Source: Basidiobolus ranarum (Eukaryota). Taken from it: a stretch of DNA of 46,530 bases. A model generated the notes under the pieces. It made no database searches and was not told the origin of the DNA. It saw only the letters and a list, made by a program, of their open reading frames with translations. Location: the NCBI GenBank assembly GCA_040143965.1, contig JASJQH010006898.1:1-46530 (forward strand), read 5' to 3'. This document shows positions 10,644-34,385 of the stretch, piece by piece. How positions within the stretch are numbered: the first letter of the stretch is position 1; each line of letters starts with the position of its first letter. The translations under genes were made by a program, and so were the position numbers.

Positions 10644-11025
10644 GTTGAGCGAGCCCTAGTGTAAAGGCTTTGTAACAACAAACTGAAGTTTTAAATTCCA
10701 GATATATTGAACTGCCATCAAAATAATCAAATAATAATTGTTTACATAAAATCAGCACATACAAAATCTATGGAAGAACTATCAAGGATCTAAATCAAAC
10801 ACTATTTAATCTTTTGAGTCCTAAACCTCATCCGCAGACGATGAGTAAATCTGACATGCTTTATATATGCCATTAGCAACAGTGCTACGGATGCATTTTG
10901 GCTAGCTAGGATAATGTTTGAGAGTCATTGGCCAATATCGAATTTCCTGACTATTTCATAGAATTCCCATATTCGCATGCCAGATATATAAGCCAAGATG
11001 AATGTGTTACTGCTACCAAATAACC

Positions 11026-13594
11026 ATGGATGGTCTCGTAAACGTCGCAAGTAAACTTTCTCTCTTCAACGAGGAGGAAGACAGCCTTATCAATAAGCTT
11101 ATCGACCTAAGCCAGCCAAAACTAGTTGATGGGAAAAAAGAAAAGTCTTTTATTCGTCAAAAAGAATATGAGTTGCCAACAGGGACTATAATTTCCAGTT
11201 GGAAGTTCACCGAATATCTTTATTCCAGAGATCCTTGTCCTTTCCCAACCTTAGCTCGTGGGTTATTTACTACAACAACCAAAGATGGTCATCACAAGAT
11301 ATTGATTCGTGGTTATGATAAATTTTTTAACGTTGGTGAAGTAAAGCAAACTGAGGTATTGTGCTCTAGAATGTAATATCTATATATGCGGGTGCATATA
11401 TATTGTTCCCGTTTGCGAAATCTCATAAACTAATATTATACTTCAGTGGGAATGGATAAAAGATAACACACTAGGTCCTTATGAAGTTACCATCAAAGAG
11501 AATGGCTGTATTATCTTTGTTTCAAGTTTACCCGAAGGTGGTTTGCTAGTAACAAGTAAACACGCTATGGGTCCTAATGAGAATCGTTCCGTTTCTCACT
11601 CGCAAAAAGGCCAAGAGTGGTTACTGAAACATTTACACAGCAAAGGGAAAACTTCGGAAGAGTTCGAGGAATTTCTTCGAAAACACGACATTACAGCAGT
11701 ATTTGAGGTGAGATATTAGCTGCATATATTCTATACTATTTGAAGGATTTGTTGGTAACCAGTAAATTTATTAGCTCTGTGATGATACATTTGAAGAACA
11801 TGTTCTCGAGTACCCATTGGAAAGCTCAGGAATGTATCTACACGGGATAAATCACAACACAGTCAAACTTGAAACTTGGACATCCTCTCAAGTAAGAGCT
11901 TGTGCCCAAGAGTTCGGATTTTTCGAAGTGAATTCCATAATAAAGGATAACCTAAGCGAGGTTCGTTCGTTTGTGGACGAGGTTAGAGAGACCGGAATGT
12001 TCCAAGGTCGAGCAATTGAGGGGTTTGTTGTAAGATGTAGACGACTTGATACAAATCAAGCATACTTCTTCAAGGTGAAATATGATGAACCTTATTTGAT
12101 GTATCGTGAGTGGCGAGAGGTCACTCTTCGTATCATCCAAGGAAAGCCTTATAGAAACAGATACGAGCTAACCAAGCAATACGGTGCCTGGGTGAAAAAG
12201 AAATTTGAGTTAGAGCCAGAGCTCTTCAAATCATTTACTGTGGGTATCGGAATCATAAAAATTCGAAACCTGTTTCTAGAGTTCAACAAAAATCCAAATT
12301 GGTCGTTGGAAATTGAGAAACCCAAGGGCTCTAAGAAAACTCTGATTTTCTCAGTCGCAATTCCTGGATGCGGTAAACTCGAGCCTAATTCATAACATCT
12401 CTTCATTGTGTATTCTGATGCAATCTTTTTAGGCAAAACAACTTTGTTTCTGGCTTTGTCCAAATTATTTGGGTTTCAGCTCATTCAAAACGACAATATG
12501 GAACAAAAGAAAAAAGCAAAGATTGTATTTGAGAAAGCAGTGGTGTCGAAATTCGAGCATTGCGATATCGTTCTTGCTGATAAGTAATTATACTCAAATC
12601 TCTTATCTTGGTCCTGGCACGTGACTAACTATGTTATATTATCTTTAGGAATAATCATATTCCTGGGAACAGAGAGGGTCTCACCAACATGTTCCTCAAC
12701 AAGTATCCAGATTCAAAGGTCATAGTAATCAATTGGTCAATCTCATCGTATCCTTCAGACAAAGTCTACGATATTGTTTATAGGCGACTCCTTTCCCGTG
12801 GTGAGAACCACCAATCACTGACACCAAAACGAACCAAGGGATTTCCTTCTATAATTCGACGCTTTCTAAACGAGTATGTCAACGTGGATCCTAGCAGGGA
12901 TGCTGACTCTTTAATTTCTAATGTAATCCAGTTGAATCCTTTTGATGACGCTGAAGCTAACCTTCGCGCTACAATCGATGCACTCTGCCCTCTTCTTGAT
13001 AGAGAGAAGCCGGAGGAAGAGAAAATCAAAGCGGCCTTGAGTTACGCTTCGAAGTTTCAGCCAACATTTAGGAAGGATTCTAATACTTTCACTAGTTTTA
13101 AGATTGGTTACTATGCCATACTATTTAATGATATCCCCGACGTGCTTCGAGATTACTTTTCACAGCATCCTGACATTGATGCTTCATTCTTTCATACGTT
13201 AGAGTCTAAAGGTCGCATCAAGATTCCTCATCATATTACATTGGTTCATAGAAGAGATGCGGAAAAATCACCAAAAGATCAAGAGGTTTTTGATTACTAC
13301 AGCAATCTTCTGAAAAACCACACGAAGCCTTCTGTAAAAATATCCGTTAGTCACTTGGTTTGGAACGACAAACTGATGGTCTTGAAAGCTCAAATTTGCC
13401 GCGATGATATACCTACAAACAGTCAACATCTTCATATCACCGTTGGTACTATATCCGATGAAGTTAAACCTTTTCAAGCAGCCTCAGTGTTAAAGTCAGC
13501 GTTCCAATCCAGCAAGGAGTTACCTGAATCTCATATCGTGACCATTGAACCTCCTTTGGAATTCGAAGGCCTGCTAGAGGTGTTCATTCTGTAG
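11026..13594 (+). CDS. TRL1: Fungal trifunctional tRNA ligase (adenylyltransferase, kinase, cyclic phosphodiesterase)
   Basis: PTLARGLF, RGYDKFFN, motif I KENG, TSKH, ELCDDTFEEH, EGFVVRC, P-loop GCGKTT, QND, ADKNNH, and 2H motifs HITL and HITVG. Four GT-AG introns. Confidence 0.95.
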
Positions 13595-15927: not shown

Positions 15928-16878
15928 TTAAGACTTGAGGGCAGAGATATGTGAGGACATTGTTTGAATTTGAATACGAGATCTATCGCTGAAGTTGGTT
16001 GTATTGAAAGTGGTGATTGGACTGGCTGAAATAGGTAGTGGTGTAGTAGGAACAAGGATCCCATCCCGGATCTGCCGATGAAGGACTGCTAATTGCTCAG
16101 TACAAAGTTTAGATTCCAAAGCCCCTGTTGATCTCATTAATATATGTCTTATCAAGTAAGTAAATAAAGGAAACTTACATCTCAATTGGAAGATTACTTC
16201 AGGGTTGAGACCAGCGGGAGTTTGAGATAGCATCAGGCTATGAGCTATCAGCGAAAAGATGCTACTAGCCATAGTGTAGCCAGCACCGTTCTTGGAGAGA
16301 GTTTTTCGATAAGATTGACGAGAAATTATAATGGAGTAAAGTGCGTATCCACTCCACCACAGCAGCAAGAAGCTATTAATTGCGAGCTCAACTACTGATA
16401 CCAATTGAAACGCACTGGGTTGAGCACTGTAAGTGCATTCTCTAAACATACCAGTGCTTGGGCTCACCCTTCCAAGGTACATGACCATGCTTGACAACTT
16501 CCCTACGAACAATGTAATGGCCATGAACAACAAAAAAGAGCGTAGCTGATTGGTGGATGTGTAGCATCGTATGAAGAAAATCACGAACAGTAGAGATGTG
16601 TTTACAAAGTATATCAAGGGATTAAAGTAGCTCTTGAAAGTACAGTTTGATGTGGCGATGTAGTCAGATACACGTGATAGATGGCACACAATAGCAAAAA
16701 AACTCTGTGCAAAGCAGAGTATAAATAGGATGTCGTTTGAATGTTTCCTGATCATTCTCAAAGAAACAAACCCATTGCTTAGATGTATCATCAACGTGAA
16801 AGAGTACACGATCATAGCCGAGTTAATCATGACAAACCATTCCTTGGAGAACTTTGCGAAATTTGTGTCGTCGTCCAT
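15928..16878 (-). CDS. Orphan multi-pass (about 7 TM) membrane protein, GPCR-like topology
   Basis: Seven hydrophobic segments; Cys before TM3 (SNCTFK) and in the loop after TM4 (RECTY). Probable 54-nt in-frame intron 16178-16125 (GTAAGT..CAG). Confidence 0.7.
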   Translation of the reverse strand: MDDDTNFAKFSKEWFVMINSAMIVYSFTLMIHLSNGFVSLRMIRKHSNDILFILCFAQSFFAIVCHLSRVSDYIATSNCTFKSYFNPLIYFVNTSLLFVIFFIRCYTSTNQLRSFLLFMAITLFVGKLSSMVMYLGRVSPSTGMFRECTYSAQPSAFQLVSVVELAINSFLLLWWSGYALYSIIISRQSYRKTLSKNGAGYTMASSIFSLIAHSLMLSQTPAGLNPEVIFQLRCKFPLFTYLIRHILMRSTGALESKLCTEQLAVLHRQIRDGILVPTTPLPISASPITTFNTTNFSDRSRIQIQTMSSHISALKS

Positions 16879-17639
16879 CGAAAAGAGTTACGATTGCAGG
16901 GATGTACTGGGGGTTATTCGATCTATCAACTATTATATAGCAAAAAAACTGACATAGACTGCAGAGATTGACAAGCTTGTATTCTATCCCATTTTTCGTA
17001 AATTGATTGCAGTGAATATGTCTTATTACGGTTTGACTCTGAATCACTCAGATGTACATGCAAATGTAATGGGAGTAAAAACAGCGAAACGAATGTTTAT
17101 TGAAAGGGGTTTTCCCGGTAAAATTTGTCTTAGCTAAGCTCAAACAAATCGGCACGTAGCCTATTGTAAAAAGGGCTACCTAGTACTTTTTACCCATCTT
17201 GGCCCAATCACGTTGATAACTCAGTCATCTCCAAACTTCTATTAAAACTTACAATGTAAGTGCTGTAGTGCCCGCGATGGAAGGTGTTAGCCTTGAGCCT
17301 TTAGCGTTGAGTGTTCAGAAATTCAAATCTACTTGATTCAGGAATTTAGGGTTAGGATTAGCGTGAGATTAGTATGGGGTATATTAAATCGTTTCTATAT
17401 AAAATCATAGTGTGACGCTCAATATTCCAGAGTAGATCAAGTTGCAAGATTACCGCAGCCCAGATAAGAAAGATCCCATCTACATAATCTGTACTCCCCA
17501 TGTATTTTACACCTCATGGGGACGATTCTTTCAGAGACTGGAAAAATTCTACCCCAGTTAGGCAATTTGATTAGGCATGATATCTTTCACTCGTTGAAGG
17601 CTTTTCGACTTCAGACATATATCTTTCAGCACAGCTAAA

Positions 17640-32712: not shown

Positions 32713-34385
32713 CTATGCCAAAGAGGCAGTGGAGCGACCACTTTTAAGACTAATGAAATCCCAACCTGGTTTTTTATCACTCTGAGAGCCAGATTGAAGG
32801 TATTTCTTTCTGCCATAGAAGGCAATCCCGCCAATAGCGAGGACTCCGATAATACCTCCAACAACACCCCCAACAATAGCACCAGTATTGCTTTTAGAGG
32901 TTTTGGAGGAACCACTGTCAGCTGCAGTCTCATCGACTTTGAATACTTTAGCAGTGCAACTAGGGATATCTATTTGTCTCGCAATATTACTGCATTGGCT
33001 TGACTCAACAGTATCGCTCTTATAGCCTGTAGCAAGTTTAGTTATCCATTTGTTATTGTAGTCGGGCTGGTAGGTACGATATTGTGCCGAAATCAACTCT
33101 GTTAAAATCAACCAAGTAAATAACACAACACGAAACTAATGTTTTCAATTGATTTCAACATACCTTGAATTGCAAGATCAGGACGACTCGGTGCGCTTTG
33201 ATCCCAGTCTATTTTGGGAAGAAATTTAGTATCCTGTTCCTTACTAAGAGTTTAGAAAGTTATAATATACCTGAATTCAAAGCCTCATTCTTGATTTTAT
33301 CAGTTCGGTACAAGCCTTCGCTTTCAAGAAGGGGAATGGAGGCCTTTGAAGTTAAGTTATACGCCGCAAGCCAGGTAACCATGTTAATATCCGTCAAATA
33401 TGTTTCATCTATAGCAAGCCAAGTTTTCGCCATATCATTTTGAAATTCTACGGGAGTTGTTAAGGGATTTTTGGTAGGTTTAACTGGGCTTCCACCTATC
33501 AGGTTAAAAGTTAGTTTTGCAAAAAGACGTGACTGAGGTTTAATTGTTTTCACATAAATACCTGCATCGCTGATTAAAATTCTATGGTAATTGTCATCTT
33601 TAAATTTATATCCTTCCTTATCACTATGGATCCAAGCAATTGGCTTCTTGTTGATCTTGCTAAGATTATCACGGTGACAGTTGTAACTATTCTTGATTTT
33701 GTTGTAAATATCTTCCGCTTCTTTATCCATGTTGAGAATAGCACCAACGTAAAGTATCCACTGAGCTTTCTATATAAAATTAAGGAACCATTAGTACTTC
33801 TTTAAAATACAACATGGAAGGTATTGTACCTCTAATGGACTCATTGAATCTTTAATTCCAAGAGTTATGGATCCTGCTTTTGAAGTGTTAGAAAACATCA
33901 ACGGTTTCTCTGAAGCAGTAATATTCTTTTCGATTTGCTTAATAACACACGGGGAAGTGGATCTATCGGTGCCTTCAATGGACGAGATTCTTTCTACAGA
34001 ATTGAGAAGCTAATACGAAAATTGAATAAATTTCTTGTATAATAGAGTATAGAATAAGAAGTAGAGTGGAGTGTACCTCAAGGAAGCCAATTGATTCTAA
34101 GCTAGCGACAATAGTTGTTTTTTCGTCCCCTAATGGTAGGGTATTCGGATCAGTGGCAGTAGTACTATCACATACAAGGCGGATTTCTGTGTTAAGGGAG
34201 AAATGCTTGATAATCTTGACGTTGTTTTCATATTTGATTTCAAATTGAGCTACGTCCTTCCTAGTAGCCTCGGAGATTTTCTCGGTAAATTTGTCGTCTC
34301 CTGGTGTGTCGCATTTGTTTCGTGCTCTAGCACCAAGGACTAAAAGTAAAGTTATAAAAGAGGTGGTAAAAGAATTAAAGTGCAT
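32713..34385 (-). CDS. Secreted, C-terminally membrane-anchored substrate-binding protein, CBA1-like (cobalamin acquisition / ABC periplasmic-binding-protein fold), 6 exons
   Basis: Signal peptide; F.IKY....KI; FLELL; TSPC; SPLEKAQWILYVGAILNMDKEAEDIYNKIKNSYNC; DAGG; YRTDK; DWDQSAPSRPDLAIQELI; single TM GAIVGGVVGGIIGVLAIGGIAFY followed by a basic stop-transfer. Confidence 0.75.

Follow-up and report, generated by a model that had tools for sequence, protein, structure and literature searches.

CBA1 is required for B12 uptake in two algae, and the closest described systems are Chlamydomonas CBA1 (Cre02.g081050, here CrCBA1) and Phaeodactylum CBA1. A bacterial binding-protein fold is also seen in another eukaryotic surface protein, the diatom ferrichrome-binding protein FBP1. 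Even in algae the way in which CBA1 works is unsettled, and endocytosis was discussed for the algal protein by Sayer et al. (PMC10828217). Membership of the CBA1 family does not imply a B12 ligand, because most streptophytes are without MetH, yet about 80% keep CBA1 (PMC10828217). In non-Dikarya fungi, B12-dependent enzymes are widespread (Orlowska et al., PMC8085122). CBA1-like sequences were reported by Sayer et al. (PMC10828217) in five of six MetH-bearing fungi (Allomyces, Spizellomyces, Rhizophagus, Rhizopus and Phycomyces), where they were offered as uptake candidates and knockouts were proposed. Hence, CBA1 membership in early fungi is not new. The original prediction for the present locus named a candidate B12 capture system, a putative plasma-membrane receptor; the candidate status stands, but fungal CBA1-like proteins were already in print (PMC10828217).

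Basidiobolus is absent from the main text of Sayer et al., and neither two fungal types nor a tail motif is described in the passages covered; the supplement may bear on both (PMC10828217). In the literature found, with subscription papers mostly outside its coverage, there was no study of a fungal CBA1, no two-type split and no demonstration of the route by which B12 enters fungi. The main text of Orlowska et al. makes no mention of CBA1 (PMC8085122). Dorrell et al. (PMC11439496) cover plants and algae, the accessible text of PMC12400927 adds nothing on fungal B12, and that of a 2026 preprint (10.64898/2026.08.07.738727) contains neither "fung" nor "endocyt".

The protein encoded at the present locus of Basidiobolus ranarum (P0001) was compared with these systems. 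It shares with both algal proteins an N-terminal leader, C-terminal membrane attachment and a host with B12-dependent enzymes, and with CrCBA1 it has homology across the whole binding domain and the same fold neighbours. CrCBA1, however, is tailless and ends at a hydrophobic stretch, whereas P0001 has a membrane helix followed by a 32-residue tail with a subfamily motif. The fungal sequences of Sayer et al. (PMC10828217) belong to the same family and the same fungal phyla and have MetH alongside; judging from the lineages of the named relatives described below, some of them are probably of the tailed type. Our preferred reading, to which we give about an even chance, is that P0001 is a single-pass, tailed CBA1-family receptor for a putative cobalamin or corrinoid ligand, which would be taken up by endocytic recycling.

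Gene model and family membership

The window, that is, the whole stretch of 46,530 nucleotides that was analysed, carried the focal gene on the minus strand, with a predicted ATG at 34385 and a TAG at 32713. The six exons gave a stop-free reading of 450 residues, and the five introns were all of the GT-AG type and 60-67 nt long. The translation was identical to hypothetical protein K7432_001110 of Basidiobolus ranarum (P0001, 450 aa), the one protein returned among 283 candidates when the largest open stretch of the gene was the query. A five-exon model of 472 aa, from which P0001 differs by one extra in-frame intron (33561-33496), was dropped; six exons match P0001 and restore DAGG. The sequence motifs quoted in the original prediction were all present in the spliced protein, and three of them were split by exon joints, namely PLEKAQW (intron 2), DAGG (intron 3) and DW.QSA.SRPDL (intron 4). 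The features of the locus are as follows.

34077..34385, minus strand: exon 1, residues 1-103, N-terminal beta region preceded by the probable signal peptide
34323..34385, minus strand: probable signal peptide, residues 1-21, ending A-R-A (from sequence; model helix 2-18)
34010..34076, minus strand: intron 1, 67 nt, phase 0, after GFLE
33830..34009, minus strand: exon 2, residues 104-163, TSPC and the beginning of PLEKAQW
33770..33829, minus strand: intron 2, 60 nt, phase 0
33562..33769, minus strand: exon 3, residues 164-232, long backbone helix of class III binding proteins
33496..33561, minus strand: intron 3, 66 nt, phase 1, in frame and stop-free; its splicing yields DAGG
33271..33495, minus strand: exon 4, residues 233-307, C-terminal lobe, IDETY
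33209..33270, minus strand: intron 4, 62 nt, phase 1
33164..33208, minus strand: exon 5, residues 308-322, predicted cleft segment, W309-D310-Q311, RPD kept
33099..33163, minus strand: intron 5, 65 nt, phase 1
32713..33098, minus strand: exon 6, residues 323-450, last part of the binding domain with the conserved cysteines C358 and C370, then the Ser/Thr linker, membrane helix, tail and stop
32968..34283, minus strand: class III substrate-binding fold, residues 35-366, introns included
32812..32883, minus strand: predicted transmembrane helix, residues 395-418, Gly-rich
32716..32811, minus strand: cytoplasmic tail, residues 419-450, beginning RKK
32746..32757, minus strand: FISL, residues 437-440, the P0001 form of the subfamily tail motif, without the usual following acidic residues

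In P0001 a probable signal peptide (1-21) comes first and the binding domain (about 35-366) next; a Ser/Thr linker then leads to one membrane helix (395-418), behind which lies a basic tail of 32 residues. The signal peptide region lay below the hydropathy threshold of 1.4; it was assigned as probable from the sequence and from the AlphaFold model, which has a helix at 2-18. One hydrophobic helix was present at the C-terminus (Kyte-Doolittle peak 2.3), and this helix with its tail bears out the type I C-terminal anchor that had been proposed. The combination that marks the CBA1 family, a signal peptide (by sequence and model) and at most one membrane helix, was thus found in P0001. The flanking genes, which encode a cyclin and an EF-hand NADH dehydrogenase, were of the housekeeping kind and unrelated to it.

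P0172 was identified as CrCBA1 by its source label (CHLRE_02g081050) and by agreement at 16 of 16 published positions. BLASTP aligned P0001 to it with 25% identity over 362 columns (E 1e-17), and a family profile built from 66 rows, which were near-full-length single-domain proteins picked from the best 150 relatives listed, matched CrCBA1 in hhalign with a probability of 100 and an E-value of 1e-53. Library proteins matched P0001 in numbers beyond chance (321 at E<=0.001 and 98 at E<=1e-10). The product of the focal gene is a membrane-anchored homologue of Chlamydomonas CBA1, as the original prediction had held.

Two anchor types among fungal CBA1 proteins

Among the 66 rows, 35 had a helix followed by a tail, 26 ended in a terminal hydrophobic stretch (GPI-like, a label from sequence only) and five had neither. 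In a quick tree built from the ectodomain only, the anchor types were sorted almost perfectly. A branch of 31 rows (support 95) held all 26 GPI-like rows together with four anchorless rows and one tailed row, and outside it were 34 tailed rows and one anchorless row. A further 106 proteins outside the alignment, which include cluster mates, two bacterial proteins and a few near-ties, were assigned by two ectodomain HMMs. The tailed side received 28 tailed, no GPI-like and 18 anchorless proteins, many of these partial; the canonical side received 29 GPI-like, eight tailed and 23 anchorless ones.

In a second tree of 35 rows, also quick, 15 canonical rows stood with CrCBA1 on one side of a branch with an SH-aLRT of 98. 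Besides CrCBA1, this side contained proteins of streptophytes and the GPI-like proteins of the fungi Umbelopsis, Conidiobolus, Mortierella, Podila and Basidiobolus; P0001 was on the opposite side from the algal, plant and canonical fungal proteins. The branch of P0001 was long in both trees (1.49 and 1.39). The two bacterial rows lay on a branch too long to root the family, and because the root is unsure, the tailed rows are not established as a single clade. According to its helix and tail and the placement of its ectodomain among tailed proteins, P0001 belongs to the tailed type and not to the canonical one. The fungal split into canonical and tailed CBA1 types has no counterpart in the literature found.

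All 19 of 19 named tailed relatives came from non-Dikarya fungi, with Mucorales, Endogonales, Calcarisporiella, Glomeromycota, Mortierella, Kickxellomycotina, Neoconidiobolus, chytrids and Blastocladiomycota represented. Of about 80 tailed-side proteins, 20 were named (about 60 further ones are unnamed), so the restriction of this type to B12-using fungi is not based on a full survey. In addition, the query biases the sample toward the tailed type. The Atlas clusters nearest P0002, the nearest relative of P0001, were commonest in Zoopagomycota and Mucoromycota, and those nearest P0001 by features were streptophyte. Both types occurred in the B. ranarum genome and in the genus Mortierella; in Mucorales and Glomeromycota, every named match was tailed.

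Several matches had unusual architectures. In P0003, P0004, P0005, P0015, P0018 and P0021, which are 780-1525 aa long, a canonical-type CBA1 domain is repeated in tandem two or three times, and a membrane helix is present in several of them; the repeats of P0003 and P0004 are nearly identical and may be assembly artefacts. P0003-P0005, the top matches, are of this tandem canonical make-up and are no close relatives. In P0009 and P0031, a CBA1-like domain is fused to BTB, or to dehydrogenase, bromodomain-associated, PHD and EBP domains, and these are probably merged gene models.

The survey of the genome for paralogues revealed four canonical-type loci, on contigs C449 (P0112), C8037, C2027 and C7918, and the focal gene was the only tailed copy found. 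Neither these paralogues nor the conserved tail motif had been noticed in the original prediction. The four copies clustered together among the fungal canonical rows of the second tree. The position of intron 1 was homologous: the donor followed PY[LI]E in two of the four paralogues, the acceptor preceded MLGL in all four, and the last exon of the canonical paralogues started at the focal intron 1 site, in phase 0 where both sides were found. This shared position, as read from the sequences, fits an old duplication within eukaryotes. Moreover, a recent bacterial transfer of the focal gene is unlikely, because it has five introns and one position in common with its paralogues. Contig C3438 was ruled out as a further paralogue, since its match was the shared Gly-rich membrane helix only. 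The copies on C2027 (L008:802-1875) and C7918 (L027:180-1253) are near-identical, with branches of about 0.06; ILESTGW replaces PLxRAEW, WKF stands in the cleft segment and the C-terminus is weakly hydrophobic. They are possibly secreted forms or allelic copies.

Predicted fold and cleft residues

The model of P0001 was folded on the 66-row alignment (pLDDT 85.5, pTM 0.78). In Foldseek and VIA-align searches it was placed among the class III binding proteins, with two predicted lobes joined by a long helix. The best match of the model was 4hn9 (Z 16.9, rmsd 3.5, 263 aligned), and 45 chains had values of Z >= 11 (11-17), after which the scores fell to 8. The values for BtuF were 13.8 and 12.7, and heme and siderophore binders ranked higher. 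The binding-protein fold that had been proposed, BtuF included, was therefore recovered in the model. The model of CrCBA1 gave the same ranking: 4hn9 was again the best match, and BtuF stood at ranks 29 and 40. Because this control yields an identical order, the fold rank is uninformative on whether the ligand is B12, heme or a siderophore, and the step of reading a heme or siderophore specificity from the ranks was rejected.

The two lobes and long helix are shared with the bacterial class III proteins (BtuF; the heme binders 2r79 and 2r7a; CeuE and FhuD; PF01497), but their identity to P0001 is 5-15%, and P0001 has a eukaryotic membrane anchor and five introns. PF01497 was the sole Pfam match of P0001 (E 4e-5, 23.5 bits), under the curated cut-off of 27.5, and an NCBIfam search gave nothing meaningful. 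A PDB search with the P0001 sequence alone returned two weak matches, both to membrane helices. Of the 17 rows of the PDB profile search, most were membrane-helix matches; Lmo2184 (E 0.009) and IsdE (E 0.05) were also reached. Furthermore, no FecCD/BtuC permease was found in the genome (0 matches in an assembly of 13,754 contigs that may be incomplete, against matches in 14 of 14 control genomes). A bacterial-style ABC partner is therefore unlikely, with the fragmentation of the assembly as a reservation.

Sixteen conserved CrCBA1 residues, given as nearly invariant by Sayer et al. (PMC10828217), were examined. P0001 keeps 7 of 16 in two alignments, joint lowest of the 34 tailed rows, whereas P0002 and P0112 keep 13 of 16 each. 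The means were 10.4 (25 rows) and 10.1 (9 rows) for tailed proteins and 14.3 for canonical ones (31 rows, range 11-16). To some extent such a difference is expected, since algal proteins were the source of the list and the tailed type also has a lower overall identity to CrCBA1 (0.24 vs 0.30). The substitutions named in the original prediction, AQW for AEW and WDQS for WFES, are real relative to CrCBA1 (Q166 for E206, and W309-D310-Q311 for W394-F395-E396). In the modelled B12-site cluster, W255, W394, F395 and E396 correspond to W, W, D and Q in P0001, so that two of four are kept, and ILNMD in exon 3 stands at the position of CBA1 FFNxE. Positions 394 and 395 were both aromatic in 8 of 34 tailed rows vs 27 of 31 canonical rows. 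By this comparison, the cleft substitutions are largely a trait of the whole tailed fungal subfamily. Both cleft tryptophans and the RPD after them are kept in P0001, as are cysteines C25, C72, C124, C194, C358 and C370. W-F-E was present in none of the five genome copies, the canonical ones having WLS, WLS, WKF and WKF, so the idea that a canonical paralogue keeps the B12 pocket and P0001 lost it is unsupported. Because the tryptophans and RPD are kept and the canonical copies are without W-F-E, the substitutions neither prove a new ligand nor mark a paralogue as the real binder.

The same residues bear on a rather unlikely alternative, in which the receptor was duplicated and the tailed subfamily, or P0001 itself, acts on heme, an iron-siderophore or another metal chelate while the canonical paralogues act on B12. 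The subfamily-wide change at the F395 and E396 positions and the fewer aromatic pairs at 394/395 would agree with such a shift, and class III proteins that bind heme and siderophores head the fold ranking; however, the CrCBA1 control deprives that ranking of ligand information, and the canonical copies lacking W-F-E leave no clean division of labour in the genome. Dikarya use heme and siderophores heavily, and no named tailed member came from Dikarya, which argues against this cargo. The retention of CBA1 in plants without B12 enzymes (PMC10828217) counts in its favour.

Tail motif, B12 metabolism and the proposed receptor role

In the tree set, 24 of the 34 tails of the tailed type carried the pattern [FY]xx[LMF], for which 2000 shuffles gave a mean of 7.1 and a maximum of 17; in 19 of 34 a D/E came after it (shuffled 2.7). 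Since the pattern was chosen after these tails had been inspected, a held-out set of 23 tails (28 minus two mis-parsed and three cluster mates) was also tested. The counts there were 14 of 23 (shuffled mean 5.2) and, with D/E, 13 of 23 (2.0), and 0 of 2000 shuffles was as high. All these counts are inflated by relatedness, and the motif spans several phyla. It was absent from 10 of 34 tree-set and 9 of 23 held-out tailed tails and from all nine tails of canonical-type proteins. FISL of P0001 matches [FY]xx[LMF] and falls in the alignment at the F column (76% of the 34), with the acidic residue missing.

By analogy, the tail motif looks like a sorting or trafficking signal. It resembles the Yxx-hydrophobic adaptor signals with F in place of Y, and GLUT4 FQQI, which binds AP subunits, is a precedent for an F-x-x-hydrophobic signal. 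The motif also often includes aromatic-x-[L/M] (FYKM, FYQM), which is the SNX3-retromer consensus (PMC9006456). An improbable alternative draws on this consensus: P0001 might be a trafficking partner or intracellular sorter with weak or no B12 binding, whose cycling between Golgi and endosome carries canonical CBA1 or its cargo to the vacuole. The altered cleft segment and the coexistence of both types in B. ranarum and Mortierella are consistent with it. FISL, however, does not match aromatic-x-[L/M], and the exclusively tailed named matches of Mucorales and Glomeromycota would suggest that the tailed type can act alone.

The genome was also surveyed for B12-dependent enzymes, whose retention had been proposed, and both were present. 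MetH was encoded by one open frame of 1222 residues with five Pfam domains and DxHxxG, and methylmalonyl-CoA mutase by 750 residues with DxHxxG. Both were surrounded by fungal genes at 40% GC, by which bacterial contamination was ruled out as their source. CblC-like and CblD-like matches were found as well. MetE was also present, and B12 may therefore be optional for methionine. For B. meristosporus, the same enzymes are given by Orlowska et al. (PMC8085122). Among the tailed-relative species present in part of Table S1 of that study, Catenaria anguillulae, Dimargaris cristalligena and Jimgerdemannia flammicorona, three of three have MetH and the mutase (PMC8085122). LMBR1-family matches lay on four contigs of the B. 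ranarum genome; they are not specific evidence, because the family is universal in opisthokonts according to Orlowska et al. (PMC8085122). As a minor observation, the CblC-like match (G000:C7046:14296-14793) was barely above the Pfam cut-off, and no CblC appears for B. meristosporus in the table of Orlowska et al. (PMC8085122).

From the computed gene structure, homology, fold, topology, motif enrichment and enzyme content, we infer the ligand, location and trafficking of the tailed receptor in four steps. Owing to the signal peptide, the binding domain would come to lie in the extracellular space or in the lumen of an organelle. A bacterially made corrinoid may then be bound in the cleft between the lobes, either directly or after being passed on by the canonical paralogues. 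The tail motif would engage a coat adaptor (an AP mu subunit or retromer), so that the receptor cycles between the surface and the endosome. Finally, the endosome or vacuole might be the place where the cargo is freed, and an LMBR1-family protein could perhaps export it from there so that it reaches CblC/CblD, MetH and the mutase; in this scheme P0001 itself is not a transporter. Counted against the receptor reading were the 7 of 16 conserved residues, the long branch, FISL without acidic residues and the presence of MetE, and the four canonical paralogues could do the job instead. It is quite improbable that the subfamily is a B12 receptor of which P0001 is a copy under relaxed selection, partly or wholly non-functional and backed by the four paralogues: its low residue count relative to P0002, long branch, change of FFNxE to ILNMD and lack of a close orthologue among the 283 candidates or in the library search would fit such decay, but it has an open frame across six exons with canonical splice sites, the six cysteines and RPD, a confident model (pLDDT 85.5) and the position of sole tailed copy found in the genome.

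A broader form of the receptor reading is put forward tentatively, as possible though short of probable. By the addition of a membrane helix and a coat-adaptor signal to a bacterial-type binding domain, early fungi may have evolved an endocytic B12 receptor of their own. Tailed CBA1 would then be the main importer of the vitamin in fungi that range from chytrids to Mucorales and arbuscular mycorrhizal fungi. It would act either by itself or at a step after GPI-type CBA1 scavengers, and Dikarya would have lost it together with their B12 metabolism. If true, it would be an independent parallel to the receptor-mediated B12 uptake of animals. The tailed CBA1 form also bears on the dependence of fungi on bacterial partners in gut, soil and mycorrhiza. 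The conserved cytoplasmic motif makes the endocytosis idea testable by point mutants, and the two-type split indicates which gene to delete in a tractable Mucorales species. If the ligand is not B12, the tailed subfamily would still be an uncharacterised metal-chelate receptor of early fungi.

Other genes were observed in the window. A copper-fist transcription factor (PF00649, E 2e-23) lay at about 39400-37560 on the minus strand, about 5 kb from the focal gene. Its copper-fist region was followed by two Cys-rich stretches, each starting NPCRC and with several CC pairs, which represent one long gene or a tandem duplicate. A fungal tRNA ligase (11002-13594, plus strand), in which ligase, kinase and phosphodiesterase domains are combined, was ordinary, and a multi-pass hydrophobic frame of 319 aa (15928-16887, minus strand) had no Pfam match. 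The rest of the window from 1106 to 46530 was ordinary and held a homeodomain protein, a Pex22-like protein, two cyclins, an aldo-keto reductase, an amino-acid transporter, the EF-hand NADH dehydrogenase and a bHLH factor.
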